Source of the DNA: a plasmid | Reading direction: 5' to 3' (one strand) | DNA: 60,946 bases | Sequence record: NZ_CP048040.1 | Shown: positions 6,026 to 53,192 of the stretch, piece after piece | How positions within the stretch are numbered: the stretch's first letter is position 1 | Layout of the letters: every line of letters begins with the position of its first letter | Made by a program: the position numbers and the translations under genes | Notes under the pieces: model-generated | Told to the model about the DNA's origin: nothing | Database searches by the model: none | What the model saw: only the letters and a program-made list of their open reading frames with translations

Positions 6026-6039
6026 TTTCGCATGCGAAA
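6026..6039. promoter_or_regulatory. 14-bp perfect palindrome TTTCGCATGCGAAA (copy 1 of 5), upstream of kfrA-like gene
   Basis: Identical 14-mer at 21020, 31255, 51626, 53179, all intergenic. Confidence 0.6.
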
Positions 6040-6480
6040 TGTTGAATGTCGCTTGGTTTGCTGCATAGTTGGATGGACATGCAACGTCAATCGTTGAGAC
6101 GAAAACAGCTGAACTTGGCGACCTCCCCGATCTTGCCCCTGTTCTGGGGACGCCAGCGCAGCAGCGGCAGTCACAACACATCACATCGGTCAGATCGAAC
6201 CGGTGTCGGCTTTAAACTCGATCATGCCAAGTAGGCAACCTTCTTCAACGTGCCGTACAAGTAGGGATTGCTCTGGCCACAATGACCTTTTCACCTTCGT
6301 CCAGGCAGACCAAATCAAGCCGGTCGCAGCGGTCAGGGGATGCCCTCCTAAGTGCCACACCTAAACCCGAACTCATCGATACCAAGGCGTGACTGAGCGC
6401 CTATTGGATACCACTGATACGCCAGCAATAAGTAATGAATGAGGTAATTATATAGGTAATAAAATACCTATGCAATATAT

Positions 6481-6512
6481 ATACCGGACATTCCGTCCAG
6501 AATGTCCGGTAT
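6481..6512. other. 13-6-13 perfect inverted repeat ATACCGGACATTC-CGTCCA-GAATGTCCGGTAT, candidate tyrosine-recombinase core site
   Basis: Perfect 13-bp arms with 6-bp spacer in a 1-kb ORF-free region; one arm (AATGTCCGGTATTTC) recurs 40 bp upstream of the integrase gene at 56346. Confidence 0.4.
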
Positions 6513-7082
6513 TTCAATTAAGTTGGTTTTGGAATGAGCGCACACTTTAAGGTCAGTAAACATGCGGCTTTCGGGGGATAGGCGATAGAGGGAGAGCTAG
6601 GATTCGGTGTGTCGAATCTCATCTAATTTGGAATTATTCTCACTCAGTTTGGTATCGGGAAACGCAACTAAAGTGAGTACTGCTGAGGGAAGCGGGCAAA
6701 AGTGGTGTATAGGTTGATTTAGAGAATCAGTGTTCTGTGCGGTTTCCTGACCGAGTAGCTTGTTTCATGACCTGGTTGCAGGGTCCTAGCGCAAGATCAG
6801 GGCTGTAGGGCATACCAGCGGGGACGGCGGAAATCCATGCAGCTGCAGGTTGATCAGTCGAGACAATAGGTCAGCTTTAGAGGCAGAGAGCTGAGCCGTG
6901 GTGGTAAATTTGAACATTAACAGTCTTCCCCCGGAGACTGTTCTATCGTTTGTCGTCATGACTAATCAGTGGCAACGTGTCCAATATAGGAAGCAGCTTC
7001 GCAACTGACCATCAAAGGCTCTTGATTAAAAATGTCTGCTTAGACATAATTGTGTCTTTATAGACATTAAAAAGGAGACCAC

Positions 7083-7709
7083 ATGGCCAGCACCACGATT
7101 AACCGGAAAAATCTTGCCCGTCAGATCCTGGCAGGTCGCGCTATAGCAAAACTGACTAGAGTCGAACTAGCCAAGCTTGCGTCCATGGCGCATCCGACCG
7201 TCAAGCTCGCTGAAGATGGCGATTCGACAGTATCCGAAGAGGCGCTGGCTAAGATCTGCCGAGCTCTGGAAAACCTTGGCTTTGAGTTCCTGGATGGGAC
7301 CAACACACCTAGCATAGCGTTCCACGAACAGAACGAGATTGAAAGTTCCGGCATCACAGCCGATGCTTCCATGCCCGGCTGGGTTCGCCGCATCTATCCG
7401 CGTCGTCTGGACGCGCGTAGCCTCCTCAATGATCTGGAGGCATGCGGCGTCCAGGTCGATAACGTGAATGTCCTACTAGATCTGTGTGCGACGAGCGAAG
7501 GATCCTGGATGGATACGATCGGTGAGCTGGCTTCGAAAGGACGAAAGTATGGCATTCACTTCCAATGGCGTGATGTGGTGAACCCTGAAGGCGTACGTCA
7601 CGCTCTTCGGATCTATAGCTTGCCTCCTGCCACGCTAAACGCCTTGGTACAGAACATCACGAAGCACGGTGACGCGCTGGAGCTCAGTGGCAACGTGGTT
7701 AATCTATAG
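7083..7709 (+). CDS. HTH (Xre-like) DNA-binding protein with C-terminal domain of unknown function
   Basis: N-terminal LTRVELAKLASMAHPTVKLAEDG helix-turn-helix; SD AAGGAGA. Confidence 0.55.
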   Translation: MASTTINRKNLARQILAGRAIAKLTRVELAKLASMAHPTVKLAEDGDSTVSEEALAKICRALENLGFEFLDGTNTPSIAFHEQNEIESSGITADASMPGWVRRIYPRRLDARSLLNDLEACGVQVDNVNVLLDLCATSEGSWMDTIGELASKGRKYGIHFQWRDVVNPEGVRHALRIYSLPPATLNALVQNITKHGDALELSGNVVNL

Positions 7710-8057
7710 AGCAATTGCGCAACTATCACCGACTCTGGATTTCAGCTTGGCCTTCAATGCCCGGCTCACATCTTCGGCCTGCAAGCTGGCATGGACATGG
7801 TAGCCCACGATCTTGCGGGACCAAGCATCGGTGTTCAAGTTCAGATACACGCACTTGCCTCGTGTAGGCAGGTAGGTAATTTCAGCCACCCAGACCTGCT
7901 CGGGCCCGGTAGGCACCACTTGGTCAGGTCCGTTCTTAAGCAGATTGGGAAGGCGCCTGAAGCGATGATGGCTCTGGGTGGTCTTGCGGTAGGCCCGCTG
8001 TGTGGGCACCAGCAAGCGTGCTGCGCGCAGCATATCAAACAGGCGGTTACGTCCCAC
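7704..8057 (-). pseudogene. IS3-family transposase (orfB integrase core) fragment
   Basis: WVAEITYLPTRGKCVYLNLNTDAWSRKIVGYHV resembles IS3 OrfB DDE region; no orfA and no full length. Confidence 0.5.
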
Positions 8058-8209
8058 CTTGACCGGGGCAAAAGCCAGGCGCGTGTGCAGGATGTGGTGC
8101 AGTTTACGTGTACCTAGGCGAGGTTGAATTACCGCCAGTTAAATATAATTTTTTTTAAAAATTTCTGCTTTATTTACTAAAAGTCTGCAAAAAATAGCCA
8201 CGGATGTAG

Positions 8210-8503
8210 CTATGGTTGATTATTCCTTAATCCGGAGTAGAGTTTCGCTACAGCTGTCGCGACTTCACCCAGTATGGCATCCTTATCAATTACCCAAGAT
8301 GCAATATTTACATTACCGCCCACGTGCATCTTCTCTTCAAGCAAAACAGTTGGTAGTGCGGCATCATCGTCGATGATCAACTCATAACCACCTTCAAAAT
8401 GTATGAAGTCACTGTCGGAAGGGTATTTCGATACATCAACTTGAACGATATGTTTATTCACTATTCGAAAGTGAGCAATTAGCTGTTTCGTAGTTTGTTT
8501 CAC
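8210..8503 (-). CDS. hypothetical protein (97 aa) in AT-rich island
   Basis: ORF in about 32% GC segment. Confidence 0.4.
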   Translation of the reverse strand: MKQTTKQLIAHFRIVNKHIVQVDVSKYPSDSDFIHFEGGYELIIDDDAALPTVLLEEKMHVGGNVNIASWVIDKDAILGEVATAVAKLYSGLRNNQP

Positions 8504-8567
8504 TTTTCCTGACGCTTATAAGGTGATCGTTGAAGTTTAGCTGCACGGCATTAGAAAATTTGATGAT

Positions 8568-20940: not shown

Positions 20941-21019
20941 TGGCTTAGCAGCAGCGGCTACACGATGTAGATAACCGGCTTCAAAAGGCCGGTTTTTTAC
21001 GTTTGTAAGGAAAAAAAAG

Positions 21020-21033
21020 TTTCGCATGCGAAA
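21020..21033. promoter_or_regulatory. palindrome TTTCGCATGCGAAA (copy 2), upstream of parA
   Basis: Identical 14-mer; 30 bp before the 18-bp operator copy at 21064. Confidence 0.6.
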
Positions 21034-21063
21034 TTTTCCAATAGCACACAGGCGCATCAATAA

Positions 21064-21081
21064 ATGATACTATAGCATCAC
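21064..21081. promoter_or_regulatory. 18-bp operator ATGATACTATAGCATCAC upstream of parA
   Basis: Family member; parA promoter carries both operator types. Confidence 0.5.
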
Positions 21082-21127: not shown

Positions 21128-21916
21128 ATGCCCGTGAAAGTAATCAGTTTCGCCAACCAAAAGGGCGGGGTGGGTAAAAGCACCCTTTGCCTGCAAATGG
21201 CCTTTTATCTTGTCGAGGCCGGTATGCGTGTCTTGGTAGTTGACATGGATACTCAAGGCAATACGTCGTCACGATTGGCCCCAAAGATTGAACTGGACAA
21301 TGGTTTAGAGCGAAGGGAGTATTATGGCACTCCAGCCTCAGCCTTGTTCTCGGCCAAGCCTATAAATATTAAGCCAATGCAATGTCCTGCAGGTATGGAT
21401 CTAATCCACACGCCGCGCAACGACCCTGATCTTGCCGAAATAGAGCAGCGTGATCTCAATATCGCGACACGACCGAGGCAGCATTTGGAACCTTTCATCC
21501 AAGGCTACGACTATGTGCTGATCGACTGCCCCCCGGCTCTTGGGAGAAAGTTAGCCGCAGCACTAGTAGCCTCAACGCACGTGGTCTGCCCTGTGAAGCT
21601 CTCTGGTTTTGCTGTCGATGGGGTCGAAGACATACTGACAACAATAATTGGGATTCAAGGCACTGAAAACCCACAGCTGCAATTGGTCGGCCTTGTAATA
21701 AATGATATGGACCGATCTGTTAGTACCGAACGAGCCATGCAAGAGTTACATGAAAGCGTGCCTGACATGCTGCTCACGAACAGGATCATGCACAGGCCAC
21801 CTTTGGACTCAGCCACTACGGCGGGTATTCCTGTGTGGAAGCTGCCTTATGCTCATGTGGCAGCAAAGGAAGTCAAAGATGTGTTGTCGGAAATAATTGA
21901 AAGGGTAGACAGATAA
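21128..21916 (+). CDS. parA: ParA-family partition ATPase
   Basis: KVISFANQKGGVGKST deviant Walker A; VVDMDTQGN. Confidence 0.8.
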   Translation: MPVKVISFANQKGGVGKSTLCLQMAFYLVEAGMRVLVVDMDTQGNTSSRLAPKIELDNGLERREYYGTPASALFSAKPINIKPMQCPAGMDLIHTPRNDPDLAEIEQRDLNIATRPRQHLEPFIQGYDYVLIDCPPALGRKLAAALVASTHVVCPVKLSGFAVDGVEDILTTIIGIQGTENPQLQLVGLVINDMDRSVSTERAMQELHESVPDMLLTNRIMHRPPLDSATTAGIPVWKLPYAHVAAKEVKDVLSEIIERVDR

Positions 21917-23070
21917 TGGGCAAGTTCGGTTCACTCCAAACTTTGACGCAACTGACAAAGATGGCTGCGGGCGGGGATAACATGATCCTAACCGTGCAAC
22001 CAGACGAGTTGGTGAGCGAAGAACAGGTACGCAAGATTTTTCGTAACTTGGATGCCCTGGCTGATTCGCTAGAAACCGAAGGCCAGCAGTCCCCTATTAT
22101 TGTCAGCCCCCGTAACAAGGATGGCAAATACGTCATTCAGAAGGGGGAACGTCGCTGGCGAGCAGCAAAGCTGCGCAACTTGGCAGTCAAGATCTATGTG
22201 AACAACACAGATCAGAGTGACATGGATGCGAAGGCTGGCCAATTAATAGAGAATATTCAGCGCGACAATCTGACGGCAATGGAAATTGCGGACGCATTGG
22301 GTGAGATGTCCGATTCAGGTATGACTGGAGTTCAGATTGCAAAGCGCATCAGTATGAGCACAAAATTCGTGTCAGTACATTTATCTTTGCGAAACTTATC
22401 TGAGCCGGTGCGAGCGCTAGTAGCTGATAATGTTACTGGTGACGCAGATTTGCTCTATACACTTGAGCAAATTGCCAAGATAGACGCTAAGCGCTGTATG
22501 GCCATGTGTGAACAGGCACGTGCAAACGGGATAACGCGTAAGCATGCAGTTCAAGTCTACAAAGTTTTGAAGGAACAAAAGGCGGCAGAAAAAGCGAGGG
22601 CTCAAGCCGAAACGCAAGCTCCAAAAATCGCTAGCCAGGATCGGGAATCAATAGTACCTACTACGCTACAAGCTACGGGGGGAGAATCTGCGGCAAGTGA
22701 AGAGACTCAGGTAGCCGCGACCAGAAATGCTGGGCCGGTAGTTGCCACTCCTTTGGAACCGCAGACAGGTTCAAAAACCAATCGGCCGAAAGATAAGAGT
22801 TTGTCTGATAACCCATTCCTGACAGACGAAGAAAAAGCGCAAGCCACTTCTCAATCAAGTAGTACCGAAGCGGTTAATCCTTTCATTCAGTCGGAATCTG
22901 GAGTGGTTGTTACTGTAAGACTATCTGATGACGTTGGCACAACTGGGCGCCTGTTGCTGGATCGGGAGCCTCAAGAAGAAACACTAGCGTGGGTGCGGAC
23001 TGCAGACGGTGATGAACTCGAAGTCGAAGTCTCTGCCCTGTCCATCACCAGTATAAAAATAAACGCATGA
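21916..23070 (+). CDS. parB: ParB/KorB-like DNA-binding protein
   Basis: ParB N-domain GQQSPIIV...QKGERRWRAAKL, HTH LTAMEIADAL; start overlaps parA stop. Confidence 0.75.
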   Translation: MGKFGSLQTLTQLTKMAAGGDNMILTVQPDELVSEEQVRKIFRNLDALADSLETEGQQSPIIVSPRNKDGKYVIQKGERRWRAAKLRNLAVKIYVNNTDQSDMDAKAGQLIENIQRDNLTAMEIADALGEMSDSGMTGVQIAKRISMSTKFVSVHLSLRNLSEPVRALVADNVTGDADLLYTLEQIAKIDAKRCMAMCEQARANGITRKHAVQVYKVLKEQKAAEKARAQAETQAPKIASQDRESIVPTTLQATGGESAASEETQVAATRNAGPVVATPLEPQTGSKTNRPKDKSLSDNPFLTDEEKAQATSQSSSTEAVNPFIQSESGVVVTVRLSDDVGTTGRLLLDREPQEETLAWVRTADGDELEVEVSALSITSIKINA

Positions 23071-23543
23071 AGCAGACACAAGAGCTAACTGATTTTTCCT
23101 CGCAGCTGTCAACCGACTCGGTGCGTAAGCTGTCGATCCTTTGCATGATAGCAAAGCACCCGATGATTTCATCGACCAGCTTGTCGCGTTACACTAAGAT
23201 CCCGGATCCGTCTCTTAAGCGGCATATCCAACAGCTTCGTCGTGGCTATTTTGTTGACATTATTTACGTACGTATGAGCCAAACTGAAGCGGGCATTCAT
23301 GGTGGCTATGAGATCCGTGACTGGGGCATCATCGATAAAGATGAATTGTTGCGTCGTTACGGGCATATGGTTCCAGATAAAATTGAGGATCCACCCGCGA
23401 TTTGGCCATCCGCACCAGCCAAATCCAAGCGAAAATCTGCACTGAAGTCGATCGCCACGGATAAGGTAACGAAGACTGTTCCGGCAGCAAAAAAAGCTGC
23501 AGCCAAACGAGCAGCTGCCAAAAAGGCTATCCCAGTCAAATAG
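23067..23543 (+). CDS. winged-helix DNA-binding protein with lysine/alanine-rich histone-H1-like tail
   Basis: wHTH-like N-terminus; tail PAAKKAAAKRAAAKKAIPVK; ATGA overlap with parB. Confidence 0.55.
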   Translation: MKQTQELTDFSSQLSTDSVRKLSILCMIAKHPMISSTSLSRYTKIPDPSLKRHIQQLRRGYFVDIIYVRMSQTEAGIHGGYEIRDWGIIDKDELLRRYGHMVPDKIEDPPAIWPSAPAKSKRKSALKSIATDKVTKTVPAAKKAAAKRAAAKKAIPVK

Positions 23544-31249: not shown

Positions 31250-31273
31250 ACAAATTTCGCATGCGAAATTTGT
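31250..31273. promoter_or_regulatory. palindrome copy 3 (extended ACAAATTTCGCATGCGAAATTTGT), upstream of tra operon
   Basis: Perfect 24-bp palindrome containing the 14-mer. Confidence 0.6.
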
Positions 31274-36296: not shown

Positions 36297-36401
36297 TGGG
36301 CTACGTAAAGAGGGTGCCTAGAGCAGGGCGTAATCGATGGGCACTAAGTTTGATAAGCATCCTGGGTTGCCTTTCAATGAGTACGGCCGCATTTGCAGAA
36401 G
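36297..36401 (+). pseudogene. 5' fragment of a secreted-protein gene truncated by IS26
   Basis: AGGAGA SD, MGYVKRVPRAGRNRWALSLISILGCLSMSTAAFA signal peptide, reading frame runs into IS26. Confidence 0.45.
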
Positions 36402-37216
36402 GGCACTGTTGCAAATAGTCGGTGGTGATAAACTTATCATCCCCTTTTGCTGATGGAGCTGCACATGAACCCATTCAAAGGCCGGCATTTTCAGCGTGAC
36501 ATCATTCTGTGGGCCGTACGCTGGTACTGCAAATACGGCATCAGTTACCGTGAGCTGCAGGAGATGCTGGCTGAACGCGGAGTGAATGTCGATCACTCCA
36601 CGATTTACCGCTGGGTTCAGCGTTATGCGCCTGAAATGGAAAAACGGCTGCGCTGGTACTGGCGTAACCCTTCCGATCTTTGCCCGTGGCACATGGATGA
36701 AACCTACGTGAAGGTCAATGGCCGCTGGGCGTATCTGCTACCAGGCCGTCGACAGCCGGGGCCGCACTGTCGATTTTATCTCTCCTCCCGTCGTAACAGC
36801 AAAGCTGCATACCGGTTTCTGGTAAAATCCTCAACAACGTGAAAGTGGCAGATCCGCGATTCATCAACACAGCGGGTAAAGCGCCCGCCTGGTCGCGCGC
36901 GCGCTGCTCAAACGCGAAGGCCGGTGCCCGTCTGACGTTGAACACCGGCAGATTAAGTACCGGAACAACGTGATTGAATGCGATCATGGCAAACTGAAAC
37001 GGATAATCGGCGCCACGCTGGGATTTAAATCCATGAAGACGGCTTACGCCACCATCAAAGGTATTGAGGTGATGCGTGCACTACGCAAAGGCCAGGCCTC
37101 AGCATTTTATTATGGTGATCCCCTGGGCGAAATGCGCCTGGTAAGCAGAGTTTTTGAAATGTAAGGCCTTTGAATAAGACAAAAGGCTGCCTCATCGCTA
37201 ACTTTGCAACAGTGCC
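36402..37216 (+). mobile_element. IS26 (IS6 family), copy 1, divergent/frameshifted
   Basis: Termini GGCACTGTTGCAAA ... TTTGCAACAGTGCC; internal Tnp26 homologue broken into ORFs 36447-36842 and 36970-37164. Confidence 0.85.
36465..37164 (+). pseudogene. tnpA: IS26 transposase, frameshifted
   Basis: MNPFKGRHFQRDIILWAVRWYCKYG... then frame breaks after WAYL. Confidence 0.7.
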
Positions 37217-38247
37217 GTGAATTAACCCTGTTTTATTTGTTACGGATAGTCATCTCAAGGATTGAGTAATGGCGTTAATAACCGCTTGGCAGATGCTTCG
37301 TAAGGGCATAGTCAAGGCGCACAGGTGGGCTTTTGAGGTGATCGTGAGGTCACAGGGGAATGAGGTGTTAAACTGGATTTCTCGGCACGTCATGGTGAAT
37401 TGCTGAATTCGTAGAGATACGTTGCAATTTGCTCTGGCGGTCAATGGATAGCTCAAGCCTGTAAGGTCGGCTCTGTCAACACACAACTATAGAATAGTTG
37501 ATGGCAGTCGATATGCGTAGAGTAAGTGCTTTACCTTATTGATTTAACTAGACAATATAACCCCGACAAGACTTGGAACTGCGGTTGGGTGAACATGGAA
37601 TTGAGTTTAGTTAAGTTAGAGATAAGCGTACTACTCATCAAGACAAATAAGACTAACGTGGGCGCACTTCACACCGTTTGAGTTGTAGATATTTAATTTC
37701 TGATTGATTAGTTCACAGAAAAGCGATTCTAGGCAAACAACGAGGTGGTGATCGGTGACGATCTTTAGAAGTGTTAGAGAATCAGACAAGTACAAAACCC
37801 TTAATCTTTAAGGGTTGCAGTCACTCCGAGCGAATAAAAACGTAAGTGGTGATAATTGGGAAAGTCTATGCCGATAAGTTGGTGATGTTTAAGGTGATTG
37901 AAAACAGATTTTTTTCGGTAATATTCGAGTGGTATCAACATGCTTTGGCTAGCATGATTTACCGAAAAAACTGTCTTAAAACGATTCTACAATCGTGAAA
38001 ATTAGTTGTCTTGGCAGACAATGATATTTTCAAACTGTCGTTGCAGTATAAATACGTACAAATTAGCGGTTTTTAAGAACCCAGTCCTCTTTAAGAGGCT
38101 GGGTTTTTCCACTCAACAACTAGAATTCATTTAATTGCCCACCATTTGCGTTTTAAGCGATTTTTAAATGCACAACGTAGGGTAGATTAAAAAAATAATA
38201 AAAACCTCCATAGTGCCGCTTTTTTTGCGTTTAATCGCTATCTTTAA

Positions 38248-38361
38248 CGAGTGTCTACGAGTGACACAAAGAAAATTCGCTTACTCCCCTCTCTGAAAAA
38301 CCGCTTTTGCTTTTTTTAAATTACTGGAGATAGTTTTTAGCGAGTGTCTACGAGCGACACA
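38248..38361. repeat. two copies of 21-bp element CGAGTGTCTACGAG(T/C)GACACA, each an internal inverted repeat
   Basis: 38248-38268 and 38341-38361, in ORF-free AT-rich leader upstream of rep. Confidence 0.45.
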
Positions 38362-38570
38362 TTGAAGCTTTTGCTTTTCAAAAAGTATGAGCATAGCGAA
38401 TACATTATCAGTGCTTTTGACTTTGCTTTTGCTCTTGAAACGACACGAGCGAAGCGAGTGCCATAGCCTTTGATTTTTATTCTTTTGGGCTTTTAATATA
38501 TTTTAAAGCTTTTAAATACTTTTAGACTGGATGAAATCCGCACAGGGCTTGGGATACAGCTAGTATATGA

Positions 38571-38650
38571 CACCAAATTCTATTAGATAAAGCACCAAAT
38601 TCTATTAAATAAAACACCAAATTCTATTGATTTAACACCATAAATAAAAT
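38571..38650 (+). repeat. Rep_3 iterons: about 4 direct 22-bp repeats (core CACCAAATTCTATTA)
   Basis: Copies at 38571, 38593, 38615 and a degenerate one at 38636, just upstream of rep. Confidence 0.75.
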
Positions 38651-38687
38651 ATGGTGCTAAATATAATAATGCAATTGTATTTTTAAT

Positions 38688-39635
38688 ATGAAAAATGAAT
38701 TAATAGTTAAAGATAATGCTCTGATTAATGCTAGCTACAATCTTGAGTTAACCGAACAAAGGCTCATTTTATTAGCGATCATGTCTGCAAGAGAATCTGG
38801 ACTAGGTATTACAGCGGACAGTACAATTGAAATACATGCAAAAGAGTATGCCGACAGATTTAACGTAACAATTGATGCTGCATATAAAGCTCTTAAAGAA
38901 GCAGCTAATACTCTTTTTGAAAGAAAATTTTACTATACAAAACAAGTACATGATTACCCGCAACTAAAAATATATATGTTTAAATCTCGTTGGGTTAGTC
39001 GGATTGCATATGCCGATGATTTTGCAACACTAGCAATTACTTTTGCTCCAGATGTAGTACCACTGATTACTCGACTAGAAGAACGGTTTACATACTACCA
39101 ATTCAAGCAGATAGCTCAGCTCACCAGTAAATATGCAATTCGCTTGTATGAATTACTGATTGCATGGCGTGAGATTGGTAAAATGCCACTTATTGAATTG
39201 TCTGATTTTCGGAAAAAAATAGGTGTTGAACCTGATGAATATCAAAGAATGGAGTTATTTAAAAGGCGTGTATTAGAACCGGCAATTAAACAAATTAACG
39301 GACACACTGATATAACTGTGTCGTATGATCAACATAAAAAAGGACGTACTATTTCAGGCTTTTCATTTAGATTTAAACAGAAGCAACAGCCTAAAATTGA
39401 AAAACTGATTGATCCAAAGCGCGACACTAATACTCCTGATTTTTTTATCCAAATGACCGATGCACAGCGCCATCTATTTGCAAATAAAATGTCTGAAATT
39501 CCCGAAATGTCTAAGTATTCACAAGGAACCGAAAGCTACCAACAGTTTGCTATTCGTATTGCAGATATGCTTTTACAACCTGAAAAATTTAGGGAACTTT
39601 ATCCAATCTTAGAAAAAGCTGGATTTAAGAGATAA
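38688..39635 (+). CDS. rep: Rep_3-family replication initiator (Acinetobacter RepAci type)
   Basis: Typical Rep_3 sequence; iterons upstream; about 30% GC. Confidence 0.8.
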   Translation: MKNELIVKDNALINASYNLELTEQRLILLAIMSARESGLGITADSTIEIHAKEYADRFNVTIDAAYKALKEAANTLFERKFYYTKQVHDYPQLKIYMFKSRWVSRIAYADDFATLAITFAPDVVPLITRLEERFTYYQFKQIAQLTSKYAIRLYELLIAWREIGKMPLIELSDFRKKIGVEPDEYQRMELFKRRVLEPAIKQINGHTDITVSYDQHKKGRTISGFSFRFKQKQQPKIEKLIDPKRDTNTPDFFIQMTDAQRHLFANKMSEIPEMSKYSQGTESYQQFAIRIADMLLQPEKFRELYPILEKAGFKR

Positions 39636-39641
39636 AAAACA

Positions 39642-39977
39642 ATGAATAAAAATACTTTTATCAAAAAATTCTTAGAAACTTATGTAAATACAACCACAAA
39701 TCACCCTGATGAATCATACGACCACATAGATTTTGATGTAATGATTAGTCCCAAATATGAAAATAGAAGCTGTATTGCTGTATTTTCAGGTGATCATGGA
39801 ATATTCCCGATTATTTTAGAAATAACAGATAACCCATACCATATGGAACTTGGATATATTGATGTCTTTCTAATTTCAAATAAGCCAGTCAGAAGAAGTA
39901 AAAAGCAACGTGACTTATTGAAGTTAATTATGAAATATCTACAAGAAAATAGTTTGCTGAAATTTAGTCATGACTAA
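39642..39977 (+). CDS. small protein downstream of rep (111 aa)
   Basis: Conserved position in Rep_3 plasmids. Confidence 0.5.
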   Translation: MNKNTFIKKFLETYVNTTTNHPDESYDHIDFDVMISPKYENRSCIAVFSGDHGIFPIILEITDNPYHMELGYIDVFLISNKPVRRSKKQRDLLKLIMKYLQENSLLKFSHD

Positions 39978-39981
39978 ATTT

Positions 39982-40288
39982 TCAAGAAATTTGTTGTGAT
40001 GTATGTAAAACCCTCAAAATACGCACATTTTCAGTAATGTCATACACCACAACATAGTGAGGATGAACAACTAACTCTCTTGTTCCTTTTTTCTGTCCAG
40101 TTCTCCCCATGAGATTATTATGAGCAAGCAAACTAACTTTTTCCCGAATTAAATCATCCAATTCAATTGCAGCAATTGGATTTCTTTCATCAAGATAATC
40201 ATAAATTCTTTCACGATCTTGTTCTGCATCTACGGTCCAAAGAATCGACGTAAAATGACAATTAAGTATTTTTAGAAAATGCTTGGAA
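39982..40288 (-). pseudogene. RelE/ParE-family toxin gene, 5'-truncated (no start codon), in frame with aphA6 stop
   Basis: Minus-strand translation ...FTSILWTVDAEQDRERIYDYLDERNPIAAIELDDLIREKVSLLAHNNLMGRTGQKKGTRELVVHPHYVVVYDITENVRILRVLHTSQQIS*; upstream in-frame codon is the aphA6 TGA. Confidence 0.55.
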
Positions 40289-41068
40289 TCAATTCAATTC
40301 ATCAAGTTTTAAAAAATAATTCCTTTTGTCAGGTCTATCATTTTTTAAATGCTTTAAAAATATTTTAGCAGTTTCCTCCGATGCATCCTCTCTTAGGCAA
40401 CGTTCAACAAAGGATATATCTACAAACTCATCTGCTAACCCAGCACGGCCAAGATCTAAAAAATAAATTTCATTGAATTTATCTATAAAAATATTACTAT
40501 CCGTGATATCGCCATGAGAAAAAACCAATCTTTCTTCAACACGAGTCTCATTTAACTCATTCCATAGACTTAGGTAAGTTTTATGGTCTCCCCATAATTC
40601 AGCGTCAAAATCATCTTGATCTATATCATCAAGGAGTTGGTTATCAATAAAAAATTTTGACTCTTTTAACCGATGATCAATGTTTGAAATAAATGGACAA
40701 TCAATAATAGCAATTGAATTTAACAGATTGAGTACCTCCTTATAGATAGCAAGCAATTCTTGGTCTGTTAAAAAAAGCGCTGAAATTGGTTTTGCATTGA
40801 TCGCTTTAGTGATCATGAATTCAAACTGCTCATCCTGAAAAGTCATGATGAGTTCAGGCACCTTTAACTTCTCAGAGAGCCAACTCAACATTTTCGCTTC
40901 ACGAGAAACACTGTATGTGGTCGCTGTATATAAAGTGCTAGATCGCTTAAGAAAAAAAGTTTCATTATTTCGATTAAAAGAATAAACATCCGATGGCGAC
41001 TGACCAATTTTATTTGGCTCTAAAACGCTGTTTCCAATAAATTGTTGAATAATATTGGGCAATTCCAT
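40289..41068 (-). CDS. aphA6: aminoglycoside 3'-phosphotransferase APH(3')-VIa
   Basis: Near-identical to APH(3')-VIa along its length (MELPNIIQQFIGNSVLEPNKIGQSPSDVYSF...). Confidence 0.9.
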   Translation of the reverse strand: MELPNIIQQFIGNSVLEPNKIGQSPSDVYSFNRNNETFFLKRSSTLYTATTYSVSREAKMLSWLSEKLKVPELIMTFQDEQFEFMITKAINAKPISALFLTDQELLAIYKEVLNLLNSIAIIDCPFISNIDHRLKESKFFIDNQLLDDIDQDDFDAELWGDHKTYLSLWNELNETRVEERLVFSHGDITDSNIFIDKFNEIYFLDLGRAGLADEFVDISFVERCLREDASEETAKIFLKHLKNDRPDKRNYFLKLDELN

Positions 41069-41216
41069 CAAGCTTTCCTTTTATTCAGTATTAAAAACCC
41101 CGCAAATGCGAGGCCTAGTAAATAGATGATCTTAATTTGGTTCACTGTAGCAAAAATATGGCTTATTCCCTAGAAGAACTTGCAAAATTATTGTCCCAGC
41201 CGACACAGCTGTAGCT

Positions 41217-41241
41217 CCTCTTAAAAAAGAGGCTTTTTTTT
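41217..41241 (+). terminator. hairpin CCTCTT-aaaa-AAGAGG + T-run
   Basis: Stem-loop followed by 8 T. Confidence 0.4.
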
Positions 41242-41421
41242 AATCAAACCCGAGTTGCGCTATGATTTTAGGGATCAATCATCTTGTTTCTCCATATCTT
41301 AAACAAGCTGATGCGTTGACCTGTGTCAAATATTCAATCATTAAGCACTTAATCAATTGCCTTGTCGTCACCTCAAAAGTCGCATCAATTGATCGGCTGT
41401 TTGAGCAATCAAACCAAACAT

Positions 41422-41443
41422 GGGGGCACCTCAGAAAACGGAA
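41422..41443. repeat. left 22 bp of a Tn21-family 38-bp IR, interrupted by an IS
   Basis: GGGGGCACCTCAGAAAACGGAA; remaining 16 bp AATAAAGCACGCTAAG at 42771-42786. Confidence 0.75.
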
Positions 41444-42770
41444 TCTATGGTCACTCCCGTTTTTGCAACACCGATTTTGACGACAAGTTGGCTTGCTTGA
41501 ATCTATCCGGCGTCTGAATGGGATTTTATTCCCGCGCCTTGATGAGTTCCGCGCCTGATGAACCTCCAGAAAATATACGGCTTCAATGAGCCTTTCCGTT
41601 TTACAGGTTCCTCAACAGGCCGGTGGGCCGTTAGTATCATCAATATCAGTATTCGCAAAACCAGATCAGTAATTCTTTAAACCGGTGTATTTCTGCCGTT
41701 ATGCTACATAAGTTTGCTGTCGTGCCGTTAGGGCCCAGGCTATTCTGGCCAGCTTGTTTGCCAGAGCACAAGTGACGACAAAGTTGCTTTTCCGGCACAG
41801 TAAATCCCTGACCCAATCGGCCAATTTGCCAGACTGGTGTTCCAGTTTTTGTATGAATACCCTGGCACATTGAACCAACAAAGTTCGGATCTTTTTATTA
41901 CCTCGCTTACTAATTCCCAGCAATGTCGTCCTACCTCCCGTGCTGTACTGCCGAGGTACAAGCCCTGTTGCCGCCGCAAAGTCACGGCTGCTGGCGTACT
42001 GCTTCCCGTCGCCAATCTCAGTTGAAATAGTACTCGCTGTCAGTGTTCCGACGCAGGGAATGCTCAGCAAGCGCTGTCCAACCTCATCTTCGTCCAACTT
42101 TCGTTTCAACTGGGATTCCAAATCTTTAATCTGCTCAACAAGATAGTGATAATGCTGTTGTAATTTCAGCAATAACTGGCTGAGGTAAAGAGGCAAACTA
42201 TTATCCTCAAGAATGGTACTCAGTCGGCTAATAACGGCAGCTCCTCGGGGAACGCTAATGCCAAATTCCAGCAGAAAAGCATGCATTTGATTGGTTGTTT
42301 TTACCTTATCCTGAACCAGGGATTCACGGACACGATGCAGAGCCCGCATTGCCTGCTGAGATTCCGTTCTGGGCTGCACAAAACGCATAGACGGACGCGA
42401 TGCAGCTTCACAAATAGCTTCGGCGTCGACAAAGTCGTTTTTATTGCTTTTAACGAACGGGCGGACAAATTGTGGTGATATCAGCTTTGGGGAATGCCCC
42501 AACTCTTCCAACTTGCGTGCCATAAAGTGAGAACCGCCACAGGCTTCCATTGCGATGGTTGTAGCGGGGCATGTCGCCAAAAATTCGATCAACTTTGGCC
42601 GGGTAAATTTTTTACGGTAAACAGCCTTCCCGCGACGATCCTGGCAATGAATATGGAAAGAGTTTTTACCCAGATCGATACCAATGAGCGCAATGTTTTC
42701 CATGATAGTTCTCCGAATGAAAGCCTGTCCTCAGCATAGTACCGGGAAGGAGGGAGTGACCATCTCATTA
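41444..42770 (-). mobile_element. IS1111-family element, IS4321/IS5075-like, exactly 1327 bp
   Basis: Splits the 38-bp IR between GGAA and AATAAAG; intact 334-aa IS110/IS1111 transposase MENIALIGIDLGKNSFHIHCQ... Confidence 0.8.
41699..42703 (-). CDS. IS110/IS1111-family transposase (334 aa), intact
   Basis: Uninterrupted ORF with conserved N-terminal DEDD-type region. Confidence 0.8.
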   Translation of the reverse strand: MENIALIGIDLGKNSFHIHCQDRRGKAVYRKKFTRPKLIEFLATCPATTIAMEACGGSHFMARKLEELGHSPKLISPQFVRPFVKSNKNDFVDAEAICEAASRPSMRFVQPRTESQQAMRALHRVRESLVQDKVKTTNQMHAFLLEFGISVPRGAAVISRLSTILEDNSLPLYLSQLLLKLQQHYHYLVEQIKDLESQLKRKLDEDEVGQRLLSIPCVGTLTASTISTEIGDGKQYASSRDFAAATGLVPRQYSTGGRTTLLGISKRGNKKIRTLLVQCARVFIQKLEHQSGKLADWVRDLLCRKSNFVVTCALANKLARIAWALTARQQTYVA

Positions 42771-42786
42771 AATAAAGCACGCTAAG
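42771..42786. repeat. right 16 bp of the interrupted 38-bp IR
   Basis: AATAAAGCACGCTAAG followed by the tnpA C-terminus on minus strand. Confidence 0.75.
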
Positions 42787-45285
42787 CCGGTTGCAGAGGC
42801 CGTAGCGGCCTGAACTTCCCCGCGCCGATCTTGGCGCTGCTGCGCCATAGGTAATCACCGGTCAGGTTGATGTGCTCCCAGCCGAGTGGCGACAGGTACT
42901 GCAATAGCGAGTCATCGACGGCATGACCATTGCCGCGCAACCTGCGCCTCGCCCTTGTTCAACCCGGCGTACACGCGGCGGCGTAGCTCGACGCTTTGCA
43001 GCCGATCGAGGATGAACAGCGTGCGCTCGATGCAGCCCAACTCGCGCAGCGCGACGATAAGCCGTTCTGGCGCGGTAACTGCCGAGTTTCCTGAGCATCA
43101 GCAGGCCGTCACCGTGCCCTGCTTGATCGAGGTGGCCAGCCGCGGATTTCGTCCCAATGGGCGCGGACGTGCTTGATGTTGAGCGTTCGCCGATCATCGG
43201 CAGGCGCGTCATAGAGCGGCATCGCCCTTCCGGGATGTAGAGCTTGGTGTCGCCCGTCGCGGATGCGCGGCGCCCAAGCAGGAAGCCCAAGAGGTGCGCA
43301 TCAGGGCGAAGACGTGATCGAGGTGAAGCCCGCCGTGTCGTGTAGTGCTCCTCGATCCGCAGGTCGGATTCGTGTACAGCAGGCCGTCGAGCACGTAGAG
43401 TTGAGGTCGCGCAAGCCGACATTGACCACTGCTGGTGTGGAATGGCGCGTATTGGTCGGAGATGTGGGTGTAGAAAGTCCGTCCTGGGCTGCTGCCATGA
43501 TTTTGGAGTTGATGTGCCCCGTGCTCTTTGCCTTGCTAGCGGGGTTCCGGAATTCTGTCCGTCCGATGATGATGTGGTGCCATCGCCCCAGTGCCCGGCA
43601 AAGGATGCCGAAACTGAGCGTTGACAGTTCAGCCAACGCTGTCGAGTACGTTTCGTCGCGGGTATGCCGAGGCTTGCAGCCAAGCGAGCTTCGCGCGCAG
43701 GTCGTGCCGGGGCAGGACTCGGCCATCTTGAGGTCAGGCCAGGTTGATCGCGTCGGCCGGGATCGTGGTCAACAATAAGGTTCTTGTCCTTGGCCAGATC
43801 GCCCGATTTCAGAGTGCGTGAAGTGCCGGGTGAAGCCCGTCCTCATCGACTTCGAACAGTTCGGTGATCTTGACGTGCGGCAGGACCATGGCTGTCTGGT
43901 CTATCAGCGCCTGCGCGGTATCGGAGCACCACCGCATCCAGCGGCGTGATCTTCAAGCCCGACTCGGTGATGATGGCATCCGGCAGGTCGTTGGCTGCCG
44001 CCATGCGGTTGACGGTGGCTTAGTTGTGCTTCCAGCAGCGTCAAGCCCGCTCCATACGAGATATTGTTCGCAGTCGGTGGCCCGACCGGCGGCAATTCGC
44101 TGGAACTGCCCAGGCTGGTGAACTTCTCGAGGTACCAGGTAGTCCTCGAAGTCCTTGAACTGGCGTGAACCCTGCGCAGATGTCGCCCGAGCGCAGAGTT
44201 CTTCAACTCCGGACAGCGCGCACGTTCGTAGTAGCGCCGGTCGATGCCGGCGTCGGTCATCACCAGTTTCTGCCAGCGCGGCGGTGAAGCCGGTCGGGGT
44301 GCATCGGCTGGCAGCTTGCGGGCGTTGTCGGTGTTCATGCCGCGCAGCACCTCAATGGCATCAAAGCACGTTTTTTGGCGGCGGGCGCAGCCCGCAGCGA
44401 ACACGGCAAGGAATTCCGGTGCATAGCGGCGCGAGATTGGCGTAGCTCTCGCCGATGCGATGCAGGAAATCGAAGTCATCGGGTTGCGCGAGCTGCGCCT
44501 CGGTGACGCTCTCGGCAAAGAATCAGGACATGACGGCCTCGATGGCGGCAAACGCATCGCAGCCTGATTGCTGGCGTCGATGGCGCGCCTGACCGATGCG
44601 CCCGGCACAGACGATACCTTGGCGTTGATGGCCTTGCCTGACGCCTGGAACTGCTGCTGATGCTTATTCTTGGCAGCGTTAAACAACACAGGATGCGGTC
44701 GTGCAGGTCGATGATTTCGTCATTGACGGTGGCCACATGCCCTCGGTGGCCAGCGCCACGAAGAGTGGCGCGTAGCGCCGTTGCGGCTCGGGTGGCCAGG
44801 TCGGCGGGTGTCATCTGGCCGCCCTCGCGAACAATCTTGAGCAGGCGGTTCTGGTGAACCAGCCGCTCGATGCCAGTAGGCAGATCAGTGCCTACCATGC
44901 CTTGAGGCGTTCGATGTGTTCCAGCATATGCCACGAATTTGGCTTGGCCGGAGGCGGCGCAACCAAGCCAACCAGGTCGTCTTGCCGTTGTCCCGGCGCC
45001 CCGAGCAGATCGTCGAGGCGGCGGCGATGCGCGTCCGCCAGTGGTTCGGCCAAGGCGTCGTAGATGCGCCGGTTAGCACGGGTGATCGCCTCGGCACTCG
45101 CCCGCTCGACGGCGTTGAGGGCGGGCAGAATGACCGACTGCCGCCGCAGGTGCCCGATCAAGGCGCTGGCCAGCACGATGCCTTTGTCGGTTTGCATCGC
45201 CAGCTCGGTCAGCATCTGGACGGCCTGCCGGTAATGGCTCATGGTGAAGGGCCGGAAACCGAACACGGTTTGCAGCTCGCTCAGG
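42784..45285 (-). pseudogene. tnpA: second, inverted Tn21/Tn501-type tnpA remnant, truncated by IS26 at about codon 107 and heavily frameshifted
   Basis: Minus-strand TnpA homology from SELQTVFGFRPFTMSHYRQAVQMLTELAMQTDKGIVLASAL down to ...YLWRS; about 190-bp deletion relative to the 600-3033 copy. Confidence 0.7.
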
Positions 45286-46103
45286 GGCACTGTTGCAAAT
45301 AGTCGGTGGTGATAAACTTATCATCCCCTTTTGCTGATGGAGCTGCACATGAACCCATTCAAAGGCCGGCATTTTCAGCGTGACATCATTCTGTGGGCCG
45401 TACGCTGGTACTGCAAATACGGCATCAGTTACCGTGAGCTGCAGGAGATGCTGGCTGAACGCGGAGTGAATGTCGATCACTCCACGATTTACCGCTGGGT
45501 TCAGCGTTATGCGCCTGAAATGGAAAAACGGCTGCGCTGGTACTGGCGTAACCCTTCCGATCTTTGCCCGTGGCACATGGATGAAACCTACGTGAAGGTC
45601 AATGGCCGCTGGGCGTATCTGTACCAGGCCGTCGACAGCCGGGGCCGCACTGTCGATTACATCTCTCCTCCCGTCGTAACAGCAAAGCTGCGCGCACGGT
45701 TTCTGGGTAAAATCCTCAACAACGTGAAGAAGTGGCAGATCCGCGATTCATCAGCACGGATAAAGCGCCCGCCTATGGTGCGCGCTTGCTCTGCTCAAAC
45801 GCGAGGCCGGTGCCCGTCCTGACGTTGAACACCGACAGATTAAGTACCGGAACAACGTGATTGAATGCGATCATGGCAAACTGAAACGGATAATCGGCGC
45901 CACGCTGGGATTTAAATCCATGAAGACGGCTTACGCCACCATCAAAGGTATTGAGGTGATGCGTGCACTACGCAAAGGCCAGGCCTCAGCATTTTATTAT
46001 GGTGATCCCCTGGGCGAAATGCGCCTGGTAAGCAGAGTTTTTGAAATGTAAGGCCTTTGAATAAGACAAAAGGCTGCCTCATCGCTAACTTTGCAACAGT
46101 GCC
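45286..46103 (+). mobile_element. IS26, copy 2, same orientation as copy 1, divergent/frameshifted
   Basis: Termini GGCACTGTTGCAAA ... TTTGCAACAGTGCC; Tnp26 homologue in ORFs 45331-45822 and 45857-46051. Confidence 0.85.
45348..46051 (+). pseudogene. tnpA: IS26 transposase, frameshifted at positions different from copy 1
   Basis: MNPFKGRHFQRD...WAYLYQAVDSRGRTVD then frame break. Confidence 0.7.
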
Positions 46104-48607: not shown

Positions 48608-48616
48608 CACCTCAAA

Positions 48617-51025: not shown

Positions 51026-51418
51026 ATGAAAAGAACAGCACCATGCGTGTTGGGACTGCATTCATTGGTCCAACCAATGAAGTGCTTCGCTGTGCGCATG
51101 AAAGAATTTGACGATCAGAACTTTCAGGAAGACGGCACGATGCTCTGGCCTGAAGTAGTGATCTGCTCAACTGCGGAGCAAGCTTATAGACTCTGTGAAT
51201 TCTTCAATTCTGAAAGTTTCAAAGTAGATTGGGAAACTTGGCAAGAGGAAGAACCAGACCTTACGGTAGATGTAGCTCAACAACGTTGGCTTGAACAAGA
51301 CTTTGCTATCTATGTTGTTGAGGAAGTGCCAGCGTTGCATAAGTACGAACATCTGTACCGAATTTCGCAAAGCCTCAGTGCTTGCTCTGATTTATTTGAA
51401 GATCTACTGTACGTATGA
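51026..51418 (+). CDS. acidic hypothetical protein (130 aa)
   Basis: ORF rich in D/E. Confidence 0.35.
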   Translation: MKRTAPCVLGLHSLVQPMKCFAVRMKEFDDQNFQEDGTMLWPEVVICSTAEQAYRLCEFFNSESFKVDWETWQEEEPDLTVDVAQQRWLEQDFAIYVVEEVPALHKYEHLYRISQSLSACSDLFEDLLYV

Positions 51419-51625
51419 CCCTGATGCATTTCCAGGGAGGCAGGTGATTACATTAGGCACCAGCGCATACCTTCCTTTATTGATGTTCCACCTTATCTTA
51501 AGTGATTCGCACATGGCCACAGCGAGATATTGTTGTGCCCTGGCTTTGCTGTTGCCATGGAACATTGGGATGAAAACGCAGAGAAGGGAATTAGAACGGG
51601 CTCCGCAATTTTGCGTGCCAATTTA

Positions 51626-51639
51626 TTTCGCATGCGAAA
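51626..51639. promoter_or_regulatory. palindrome copy 4, upstream of RES-Xre operon
   Basis: Identical 14-mer about 80 bp before antitoxin start. Confidence 0.6.
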
Positions 51640-51719
51640 TCTGCTCCGGAGTCTTTCACTTGTTTGCTTCAAATGATAGAATTAAAACCATCAATTGAAT
51701 GGTTTTAAGGAGAGCTATC

Positions 51720-52187
51720 ATGGAAATTATTGATGCTACAGTTGCGCCGACAAAACTCGGCGGTAAGACAGCGGTCAAAGACTTTTGGGGGATGGCTCAC
51801 CGTTTGGGAGGCATGAGTGAATTAGAGCGTATTCGGTCGATCAAAGCAGGGTTTCCCATCTACATGGCTGATGCCACCAAAAACACGTTCCGGATGACAA
51901 GTCAGAGCGTTAGCGAACTATTGAATCTGTCTGTGACCACGTACGAACGTCGTCGCCGCGATTCTAAGCCATTGGATGTTGCCGCATCTGAACGCCTAGA
52001 TCGTGTTGCGGCAGTTGCGCTCTTGGCCGAAGATGTTTTTGAGGACAAGACCGATGCGGCGGTCTGGCTTTCTTCACCAAACAAGGCTTTAGGTGGAAAC
52101 ACTCCCGTAATGCACTGCGAGACTGCGATTGGTGCTCAGCAGGTTAGGCGGATCCTCAATGCGCTTGAGTGGGGTGGTGCGGCCTGA
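51720..52187 (+). CDS. Xre-like/DUF2384 antitoxin of a RES-Xre module
   Basis: C-terminal VWLSSPNKALGGNTPVMHCETAIGAQQVRRILNALEWG typical of DUF2384. Confidence 0.65.
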   Translation: MEIIDATVAPTKLGGKTAVKDFWGMAHRLGGMSELERIRSIKAGFPIYMADATKNTFRMTSQSVSELLNLSVTTYERRRRDSKPLDVAASERLDRVAAVALLAEDVFEDKTDAAVWLSSPNKALGGNTPVMHCETAIGAQQVRRILNALEWGGAA

Positions 52188-52651
52188 TGATTGCGTGGAG
52201 AATTAGTAAGGCCAAGCGGGCAGGAGATTTGTCCGGGATCGGTGCTGCGCTCGAGGGTGGTCGTTGGAACGATGTTGATGTGCCAGCAGTGTATATGGGC
52301 ATGACACCAGCTATTTGTTGTCTTGAGACATTTGTACATGCAACAGGTGTGCCGCAGTTTCCGCTGAAAATTACGCGCTTCATCCTTCCCGAAGATGAGG
52401 CGCTTTTCTTTGAGCCGGAGCCTAATACTTTGCCAAATGGTTGGGCCTCAGTTCCGTCAGATCGCCCTAGTATGAATTTTGGTACCCGCTGGCTTAAAAG
52501 TCAGAGTCATCTTGGTCTGATTGTGCCTTCGGCTGTACTACCGCTTGAGCGCAACGTTGTGTTGAACCCTGCTCATCCAGCCATTGCAGATGTCAAAATC
52601 GACGCTCACTTTGAGTTCATGTACGACAAGCGCATGTTTGCGGGCCAGTAG
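52187..52651 (+). CDS. RES-domain toxin (NAD+-targeting family)
   Basis: GGRWN (Arg), CLETFVH (Glu), LIVPSAVLPLERNVVLNPAHP (Ser) RES signature; ATGA overlap with antitoxin. Confidence 0.7.
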   Translation: MIAWRISKAKRAGDLSGIGAALEGGRWNDVDVPAVYMGMTPAICCLETFVHATGVPQFPLKITRFILPEDEALFFEPEPNTLPNGWASVPSDRPSMNFGTRWLKSQSHLGLIVPSAVLPLERNVVLNPAHPAIADVKIDAHFEFMYDKRMFAGQ

Positions 52652-52665
52652 CCGTTTAGGGCCGC

Positions 52666-53073
52666 TCATAAACCAGGCTGCGAGTTGTTGCGTGAGGCTT
52701 CTAAAAGGCTGTGGGTCAATACTTCTGTTGACTCCAAAGCAATCGAACGTTCTTTGTTAAGTTTCATCAGCCGTGGCAAAAGGGAATCACATTCTTCTGC
52801 ACCTAGCTCTTTAATTTCAGGGCGGGCAGCGTGGTCGGTGATGAGGACTTCGACTAGCTCGACAGGAATGATGACATCTTCGCCCTGCAGACTGAAAGCT
52901 ACCTGAGCTTTGGAGCCTTCTGTAAAAACCTTTGCGGTGGCTTCGTCAGCGCAGTGGGCGACGATTCCACGGAACGTACCTTCAATAGCGGCAGCTTCCT
53001 CAAAGTTAAAGGCCTGAGCTGGCGTTATATATATTGCGCCTGTAATTACAAGAGCTGTCTGAATGCGCTTCAT
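52666..53073 (-). CDS. secreted hypothetical protein (135 aa)
   Basis: Signal peptide MKRIQTALVITGAIYITPAQA. Confidence 0.5.
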   Translation of the reverse strand: MKRIQTALVITGAIYITPAQAFNFEEAAAIEGTFRGIVAHCADEATAKVFTEGSKAQVAFSLQGEDVIIPVELVEVLITDHAARPEIKELGAEECDSLLPRLMKLNKERSIALESTEVLTHSLLEASRNNSQPGL

Positions 53074-53178
53074 AGCAGTGGACGTTGAAGATGGAACACA
53101 GAGGTGATTGTGGCCTACTGGATTGTGTGTTGCGGCTTATGGAGTAACCCTATTCAGCCCTTTCTAGTGGACGTACGA

Positions 53179-53192
53179 TTTCGCATGCGAAA
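53179..53192. promoter_or_regulatory. palindrome copy 5 (extended ACGATTTCGCATGCGAAATCGT)
   Basis: Perfect 22-bp palindrome between umuC stop and secreted-protein gene start. Confidence 0.6.

Follow-up and report, generated by a model that had tools for sequence, protein, structure and literature searches.

The best-described relatives of the system reported here are the parAB053 operon and the dispersed parS sites of IncA/C plasmids (IncC R55, pVCR94-type). The ParB of IncC plasmids contains ParB and KorB domains and, when purified, gives specific shifts with inverted repeats of 22 bp in electrophoretic mobility shift assays (EMSA); these sites combine an invariant 14-bp core, TTTCACATGTGAAA, with AAAC/GTTT flanks (Nagy et al. 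2024, PMC10954446). Plasmid R55 carries 14 of them across its backbone, 10 intergenic and 4 inside open reading frames (ORFs); the documented role of these orthologous sites is in partition, incompatibility and autoregulation of parA, and the one at PparA abuts the -10 box (PMC10954446). The third gene, 053, is required for IncC stability by no known mechanism, but is dispensable for stabilisation that depends on parS (PMC10954446). SGI1 has two copies of the site, DR1 and DR2, with which it exploits the partition system of the plasmid and destabilises it, and these palindromes alone confer ParB-dependent stabilisation and incompatibility (PMC10954446). The IncC authors noted the analogy with KorB, and only hypothesised a global regulatory role for ParB (PMC10954446). 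Here we examine the plasmid sequence NZ_CP048040.1 (60,946 nt, the whole of which we call the window), where five copies of a 14-bp palindrome can be read with good confidence as the cognate parS/KorB-type operator sites of the plasmid's own KorB-family ParB.

KorB of IncP-1 plasmids recognises its operator mainly by two residues outside the helix-turn-helix (HTH), T211 and R240, which contact bases beside the centre (PMC3597684), and it is a sliding clamp dependent on cytidine triphosphate (CTP) (PMC11790492). The KorB-type ParB of the IncU plasmid RA3 serves both partition and regulation (PMC7414963). A literature search with the exact window 14-mer, TTTCGCATGCGAAA, found it in no paper of the library searched; the variant differing at one position occurs in one, and so led to the IncC study (PMC10954446). 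An earlier note on the window, which drew attention to the palindrome, had not recognised the operator, yet the motif is one symmetric position away from the published IncA/C parS. By sequence comparison it is thus the G-variant of TTTCACATGTGAAA, and we refer below to G-type and A-type cores, respectively.

The palindrome occurs exactly five times in the window (Table 1), as the earlier note had counted, and no further copy with up to two mismatches exists in it. Chance, which the note had also dismissed, is excluded as the origin of the five copies: none of 100 dinucleotide-preserving shuffles gave five matches even with two mismatches allowed (shuffle mean 0.57), and by an arithmetic estimate about 2e-4 exact copies of one 14-mer palindrome are expected in 61 kb. 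At three copies the perfect palindrome extends beyond the core, to 24 and 22 bp in the two cases that had been pointed out before and to 16 bp in a third. More than 5 bp to either side, the surrounding sequences are unrelated (19-30% identity), so the copies are independent sites and not portions of a longer repeat. A longer repeat or mobile element containing the palindromes was considered and rejected, as flank identity is at the random level. Isolated half-sites show no enrichment (9 observed vs about 7 expected). Neither the A-type core within one mismatch nor the canonical chromosomal parS, TGTTNCACGTGAAACA, within two mismatches was found in the window, and ParB therefore has no competing site to use there.

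The placement of the copies is also non-random. Over positions 10106-36401 the window shares 99.3% identity with pGZAF1_VIM, a plasmid of Alcaligenes faecalis (NZ_KY623659.1, 124 kb), and according to the annotation of this 99%-identical relative all five sites lie outside coding sequences (CDSs), in agreement with the intergenic placement first proposed. Non-CDS DNA makes up 12.5% of the pGZAF1_VIM backbone, giving a binomial P of 3e-5. Copy 1 falls within the longest ORF (5070-6080), yet upstream of the annotated start of that gene. pGZAF1_VIM itself has eight copies, all five of the window and three more, with seven of the eight outside CDSs (binomial P = 3e-6). These seven, like the five window sites, are intergenic and stand 21-280 nt upstream of a start codon.

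Table 1. Predicted ParB sites, par operon and other features of the window
Feature	Coordinates	Strand	Description
Copy 1, predicted parS/operator	6026..6039		21 nt upstream of annotated TTG start (6005) of a minus-strand gene for a 311-aa coiled-coil protein
Terminator-like hairpin with T-run	20973..20994	+	Ends upstream gene, insulates parA control region
Copy 2, predicted parS/operator	21020..21033		94 nt upstream of parA start (21128)
parA	21128..21916	+	Short Walker-type partition ATPase, no N-terminal DNA-binding extension; Pfam AAA_31, CbiA and ParA matches
parB	21916..23070	+	KorB-family ParB, 384 aa; predicted binder of the palindromes
053-like gene	23067..23543	+	Third operon gene, 158 aa; homolog of IncC orf053
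Copy 3, predicted parS/operator	31250..31273 (core 31255-31268)		24-bp perfect palindrome; 169 nt upstream of orf126, with which the traL-E-K-B-V-A transfer operon begins
IS26	36401-37216		
RepM initiator, Acinetobacter-type	38688-39635		
aph(3')-VI	40289-41071		
IS26	45284-46103		
Copy 4, predicted parS/operator	51625..51640 (core 51626-51639)		16-bp perfect palindrome, upstream of the Xre-antitoxin/RES-toxin pair
Copy 5, predicted parS/operator	53175..53196 (core 53179-53192)		22-bp perfect palindrome, between umuC (stop at 53267), downstream of which it lies, and a minus-strand 135-aa ORF (start at 53073) with a signal-peptide-like N-terminus, 106 nt upstream of which it lies

The ParB encoded in the window had been named as the obvious candidate binder, and the evidence supports this. 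Its ParB_N, HTH_ParB and KorB domains (PF08535, 42.4 bits vs a cutoff of 22.3) all score above the Pfam threshold, hhalign aligns residues 25-199 to IncP-1 KorB with a probability of 99.5%, the protein matches PDB entries 8qa8 and 1r71, and IncC ParB, the closest well-studied relative, binds dispersed palindromes with a near-identical core in EMSA. Three motifs are invariant in the family alignment, Q37-x-R39, G77-E-R-R-W-R-A83 and E112-N-I-Q-R116, and correspond to the CTP-pocket motifs for binding and hydrolysis (GERRxRA, ENxQR and the box I arginine) established for ParB/KorB proteins (PMC11790492). Its nearest relatives of wide distribution are 'KorB domain-containing' ParBs, those of IncC plasmids sharing 48% identity over residues 24-214 and those of the pAQU1 family 35% over their full length. 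In a rough neighbour-joining (NJ) tree the window ParB stands by itself on a long branch, no other protein exceeding 53% identity to it. On these grounds, and on those that follow, this ParB is very probably the protein that binds the palindromes.

Its operon neighbours are related to those of IncC plasmids as well. The window ParA is 61% identical to IncC ParA, and the 053-like gene, whose start overlaps the parB stop, encodes a protein with 35% identity to IncC 053 (blastp, E = 1e-18). The Pfam domain HTH_43, which scores 39 bits in IncC 053, stays below threshold in the window protein. Judged by homology, the parA-parB-053-like order is the parAB053 layout of IncA/C plasmids. The window 053-like protein also differs from IncC 053 by an added C-terminal tail of about 55 residues, rich in Lys, Ala and Pro and resembling histone H1, which is not present in the 90-aa homologs of IncC, pAQU1 and Halomonas.

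The likeness to IncA/C extends to the sites. Both are 14-bp CATG-centred palindromes with TTTC...GAAA arms that match at 12 of 14 positions, and both are spread over the backbone as single copies, mostly intergenic, of which one precedes parA and another the traL operon of a MOBH/MPF-F backbone. They differ at core position 5 and its symmetric partner (G/C in the window, A/T in IncC) and in copy number (five in the window and eight in the full pGZAF1_VIM vs 12-14 in IncC). The window host, unlike the hosts of IncA/C plasmids, is a betaproteobacterium. The parS mimics of SGI1 share the same site architecture but carry the A-type core, and the G-type sites of the window are predicted to be free of cross-talk with SGI1.

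The earlier note had instead seen a mirror of the IncP-1 KorB system. This comparison stands for the KorB domain and the dispersed sites, but the closest system is parAB053 of IncA/C, not korAB of IncP-1. Like the window ParB, KorB of RK2/RP4 has the KorB DNA-binding domain, the CTP-pocket motifs and an arginine at the R240 position, and its plasmids have dispersed palindromes with TTT...AAA arms, many near promoters, and a ParA partner encoded just upstream. The operators differ in sequence and half-site spacing (13-bp TTTAGCSGCTAAA for RK2 OB vs the 14-bp TTTCGCATGCGAAA), T211 is replaced by Asp or Glu in the window family, and the C-terminal domain match of the window ParB is sub-threshold. 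The window system also lacks a KorA/TrbA partner and the korA-incC-korB order; no KorA-family match was found among the scanned neighbours, the whole window not having been scanned for KorA. RA3, with parS and three OB sites, resembles the window in its few dispersed, identical sites and its KorB-type ParB (PMC7414963), and differs in belonging to a MOBP plasmid family and in having korA within the operon.

Chromosomal ParB-parS systems share with the window ParB the CTPase fold and the HTH. By our own comparison, the IncA/C core TTTCAC-AT-GTGAAA can be read as the canonical parS half-sites TGTTTCAC and GTGAAACA moved 2 bp apart, and the Halomonas G-type sites carry the canonical TG...CA outer bases (TGTTTCGCATGCGAAACA). 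The window sites differ from chromosomal parS in the same 2-bp wider spacing of the half-sites and in position 5.

To see how the motif is distributed among relatives, a profile of seven ParBs was run against one genome per species, yielding 56 loci, and multi-copy palindromes in close ParB relatives were found by de novo search. The A-type core is dispersed in the IncC plasmid pEC2-NDM-3, in pAQU1, in pAsa4, in one Pseudoalteromonas plasmid and in one Thiothrix plasmid; it stands upstream of parA in four of these five, the exception being Pseudoalteromonas, where the interval searched contains no copy. One Halomonas plasmid has the window variant, also upstream of parA. Most of the 56 loci carry a CATG-centred 14-bp palindrome some 850 bp ahead of the parB start, which places it 33-100 bp upstream of parA. 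Its core is A-type in many Gammaproteobacteria, G-type or a degenerate form of it in Halomonas/Vreelandella and in Vibrio diabolicus (six copies), TTACGCATGCGTAA in Pseudohongiella-like metagenome-assembled genomes, TTTTGCATGCAAAA in several Vibrio plasmids, TTGCACATGTGCAA in Kistimonas and TTTGTCATGACAAA in Endozoicomonas. In this survey the core variant follows the ParB clade, and the G-variant appears in at least three separate clades of the rough NJ tree. The conservation in related plasmids that the earlier note had proposed as a check is thus found: none of the five sites is missing from pGZAF1_VIM, and more distant relatives have either this core or a variant of it ahead of parA.

This co-variation bears on whether some other plasmid protein might be the binder, such as the 053-like winged-HTH protein or the HTH protein encoded at 7083-7709. 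Palindromes are common targets of HTH proteins, the 053-like gene shares a transcript with parAB, 053 is needed for IncC stability, and the bare IncC core is not a target of ParB. Yet in EMSA the full 22-bp sites were bound specifically by IncC ParB with no other protein, stabilisation through parS did not require 053, and the site variants follow ParB clades. Moreover, 18 loci that have no 053-like gene in the 2-20 kb retrieved downstream of parB still have palindromes upstream of parA, and the motif therefore tracks ParB, not the third gene. We regard a binder other than ParB as improbable.

Conserved palindromes could also act as nucleic-acid structures (an RNA hairpin, terminator, attenuator, cruciform or single-stranded DNA signal) or as targets of restriction-modification systems and methyltransferases. 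Pairing survives the symmetric A-to-G and T-to-C change seen in relatives, the two longest window palindromes fold at -8.8 and -9.7 kcal/mol, the core includes GCATGC and CATG, and several DNA methyltransferase genes are encoded on the plasmid. However, the stems, being rich in A/U, are weak (three of the five fold at -3 to -5 kcal/mol), a terminator was called at none of the five, and the sites lie upstream of genes and not at their 3' ends. Base-level conservation over 14-16 bp exceeds both the length of a restriction-modification target and what a structure would need, and the homologous IncC sites are proven to bind protein (PMC10954446). An explanation of this kind is very unlikely, and recognition by ParB remains the preferred reading.

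Site positions are partly shared across this distance. When the eight pGZAF1_VIM sites are compared with the 13 of IncC pEC2-NDM-3, those upstream of parA and of the traL operon are positionally conserved; these two are strictly orthologous, two others lie in the same gene neighbourhoods and four have no counterpart. The site upstream of parA has orthologues in IncC, pAQU1, pAsa4, Halomonas and about 40 other loci, and that of copy 3 is kept upstream of the traL operon in pEC2-NDM-3. A further shared position lies inside a gene: both pEC2-NDM-3 (143662) and Halomonas (L009:3272-3285) carry a site at the same aligned codons of a xerC-like tyrosine recombinase gene, where IncC encodes L-F-F-T-C-E-S through TTTCACATGTGAAA and Halomonas I-C-F-A-C-E-T through TTTCGCATGCGAAA. 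Since the same codons carry either core, the A-type and G-type are versions of one element. Some sites are kept where promoter control gives no obvious reason. The xerC-like homolog of pGZAF1_VIM has no internal site, but one 276 bp upstream instead.

Other relatives group their sites. Edwardsiella anguillarum (L038:5079-5380) has seven A-type cores in tandem at exactly 48-bp spacing, and in Marinobacterium (L015) 12 copies lie close together within 21 kb. Both look like centromere-like arrays, unlike the single dispersed sites of the window and IncC. Together with the sites within genes, these tandem arrays point to ParB loading and partition as the likely core role, and we are fairly confident that the window palindromes too would act as partition or loading sites.

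Thiothrix plasmids have a second palindrome family, TTTTACATGTAAAA, beside their A-type sites (at 1892, 2012, 3949, 7580 and 8809 of L010 and at 13726 and 18742 of L043). A further gene of L043 (4769-5278, minus strand) codes for a second ParB-like protein, a distant one (26% identity), and two orthogonal ParB-parS pairs may exist on one replicon.

The earlier note had proposed a KorB-like global regulon. In the strong form of this reading, the palindromes serve above all as operators through which promoters of partition, transfer, toxin-antitoxin and accessory genes are repressed in concert, and partition is secondary or depends on a single site. The intergenic positions described above agree with this, and so does the sharing of the parA and traL-operon sites with IncC despite about 50% protein divergence. 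RK2 KorB and RA3 KorB, the latter with parS and three OB (PMC7414963), provide precedents, and the IncC authors suspected a global role of ParB (PMC10954446). The promoters add a further point. Upstream of parA the order is hairpin, A-tract, site and, about 35 bp further downstream, a candidate extended -10 promoter, TGATACTAT, which places the centre of copy 2 at about -53. Just downstream of copy 4 lies the candidate promoter TTCACT-16-TGATAGAAT, with the site centre at about -56, so that the parA and Xre-RES sites have nearly one geometry relative to similar extended -10 promoters.

The two candidate promoters (21060-21075 and 51668-51683) have a common string, AAATGATA(C/G)(T/A)AT, at a near-equal distance from the palindrome, which suggests a common promoter design.

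As it was put forward, however, the global regulon, though plausible, is not supported. Three of the five sites are without a recognisable sigma-70 promoter, site positions turn over between relatives, with only two of eight strictly orthologous to IncC, and relatives keep sites in coding sequences (four of 14 in R55; the xerC-like gene) as well as tandem arrays. The intergenic bias could simply reflect the difficulty of encoding a 14-16-bp palindrome in genes, no KorA homolog was found among the scanned neighbours, and the third operon gene encodes a winged-HTH protein of another family, the HTH_43 type. We therefore find a primarily regulatory function the less probable account of the sites, and it is likewise doubtful that at least three of the five neighbouring promoters would be materially repressed. 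ParB regulation of the four units other than parA, in the manner of KorB, is possible by analogy.

At individual sites, the promoter scan and a relaxed scan found no sigma-70-like promoter near copy 1 or at copy 3, and the scan of copy 5 gave nothing recognisable. At the traL operon this would fit an activator-dependent promoter, as in IncC. For the gene downstream of copy 1 (5070-6005) the earlier label 'kfrA-like' has been dropped, as the protein gives coiled-coil matches only and no KfrA_N domain; the identity was also rejected because there is no homology to the IncC gene beside an IncC site. The stretches 6006-7082 and 36987-38688 are unusually long for having no ORF of at least 80 aa, and the first, of about 1.1 kb, begins at copy 1 and reaches the gene for the HTH protein.

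Which residues might read the variable base was addressed through IncP-1 KorB. The HMMER alignment to the KorB-DNA structure (chain 1r71) ends at residue 167, short of the specificity residues, and was bridged with IncP-1 KorB and hhalign. Aligned in this way to the ParB family, T211 corresponds to window D178 and R240 to window R208. R208 is invariant in the ParB family, as the CATG centre is in every site variant. The columns that covary best with A or G at core position 5 are 182 and 211, each 3-4 residues past one of the KorB-equivalent positions: at 182 all 25 A-type proteins have Asn, where G-type ones have Ser, Thr, Ile or Glu, and at 211 every A-type protein has Ser, where G-type ones have Cys or Ala. 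No column of the ParB alignment perfectly separates A-type from G-type sites. On this alignment, columns 182 and 211 are a lead to the specificity determinants, not a rule.

Several observations weigh against the palindromes being ParB sites of the kind proposed, or against parts of that reading. The core may be insufficient without its surroundings: IncC ParB did not bind the 14-bp core by itself (PMC10954446), and the flanks differ, with A...T in the window (flanks that usually extend the G-variant to 16 bp) vs AAC...GTT in IncC; three of the five window sites have no symmetric flank. The KorB_C domain of the window ParB (PF06613, SH3-like dimerisation) reaches 23.3 bits, below the cutoff of 25, and hhalign left the C-terminus unaligned. 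Two Halomonas-group loci (L034 and L044) have A-type residues beside G-type sites. A credible sigma-70-like promoter stands beside only two of the five sites, those of parA and Xre-RES, with none convincing at the other three. Even at parA the geometry differs. The promoter of IncC, pAQU1, pAsa4 and the G-type Halomonas plasmid is TTGCnG-17-TA(C/G)AAT and ends one base before the site, and bound ParB would there be expected to cover the transcription start. The window site instead lies upstream of the best candidate promoter, where IncC has it directly after the -10 box. Because of this difference, parA autoregulation by simple occlusion cannot be assumed.

In par systems whose ParA is short and without an N-terminal DNA-binding extension, autoregulation is generally done by ParB. 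Autoregulation of parA through copy 2 seems a reasonable, if less secure, expectation from the arrangement of the locus.

From these comparisons we infer the following course of events. A ParB dimer would recognise each G-type palindrome through its HTH/KorB domain, with R208 reading the invariant CATG centre and residues around 178-182 and 208-211 setting the variable base at position 5. Binding to the site would trigger CTP-dependent closure of the N-terminal gate, and the clamps would then slide off and accumulate around the site. ParA would move these ParB complexes and so partition the low-copy plasmid, and ParB bound or accumulated at the parA-proximal site would feed back on parAB-053 expression. 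At the other intergenic sites, ParB may dampen the promoters of the coiled-coil gene, the traL operon, Xre-RES and the 135-aa ORF (orf135), which is the least supported step. A bolder version, in which CATG-centred palindromes with at least six lineage-specific cores form a natural specificity code for a large family of KorB-type ParBs, the window pair is orthogonal, and ParB-CTP clamps loaded at the five promoter-proximal sites together with the 053-like protein silence promoters of partition, transfer, toxin-antitoxin and accessory genes in the manner of KorA/KorB, strikes us as rather unlikely.

pGZAF1_VIM is a MOBH plasmid with the backbone of the IncA/C, pAQU1, pAsa4 and SXT group (mobI, MobH relaxase, traD, traLEKBVA, traC/N/F/H/G, a FlhC-family activator, ssb and exo), and to judge from the alignment the window is an IS26-rearranged derivative or relative of it. 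The two IS26 copies bracket 37217-45283, a segment with the RepM initiator, aph(3')-VI, an IS110-family transposase and a Tn3 remnant (Table 1). Compared with pGZAF1_VIM, the window is missing a large part of the transfer genes (from traC to traG, with traN, traF and traH among them) together with ssb/exo and the gene for the FlhC-family activator, and the window plasmid is probably non-conjugative, with a second replicon. The window ends (57235-60946 and 4-578) map to adjacent mer parts of pGZAF1_VIM (85504-89338 and 89348-89926). As the ends are contiguous in the mer operon, the window is probably a complete circle of about 60.9 kb, opened within mer.

The finding marks a candidate centromere and operator, of which ACAAATTTCGCATGCGAAATTTGT is an example as a 24-bp G-type site, for a poorly studied Alcaligenes plasmid lineage that carries carbapenemase (VIM) genes. 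It also makes dispersed parS of the IncA/C type a feature of a whole family, with several sequence variants. If the G-type is orthogonal, the plasmid would be compatible with IncA/C plasmids at the level of partition and blind to the A-type parS decoys of SGI1; if the specificity-code reading is true, it would be freed from par-mediated IncA/C incompatibility and from parS mimicry of the SGI1 type. The promoter-proximal sites at parA, the traL operon and Xre-RES are ready-made reporters for the question of global regulation by IncA/C-type ParB, and the core variants with their covarying residues 182 and 211 offer a tractable system in which to study how ParB/KorB proteins switch specificity.

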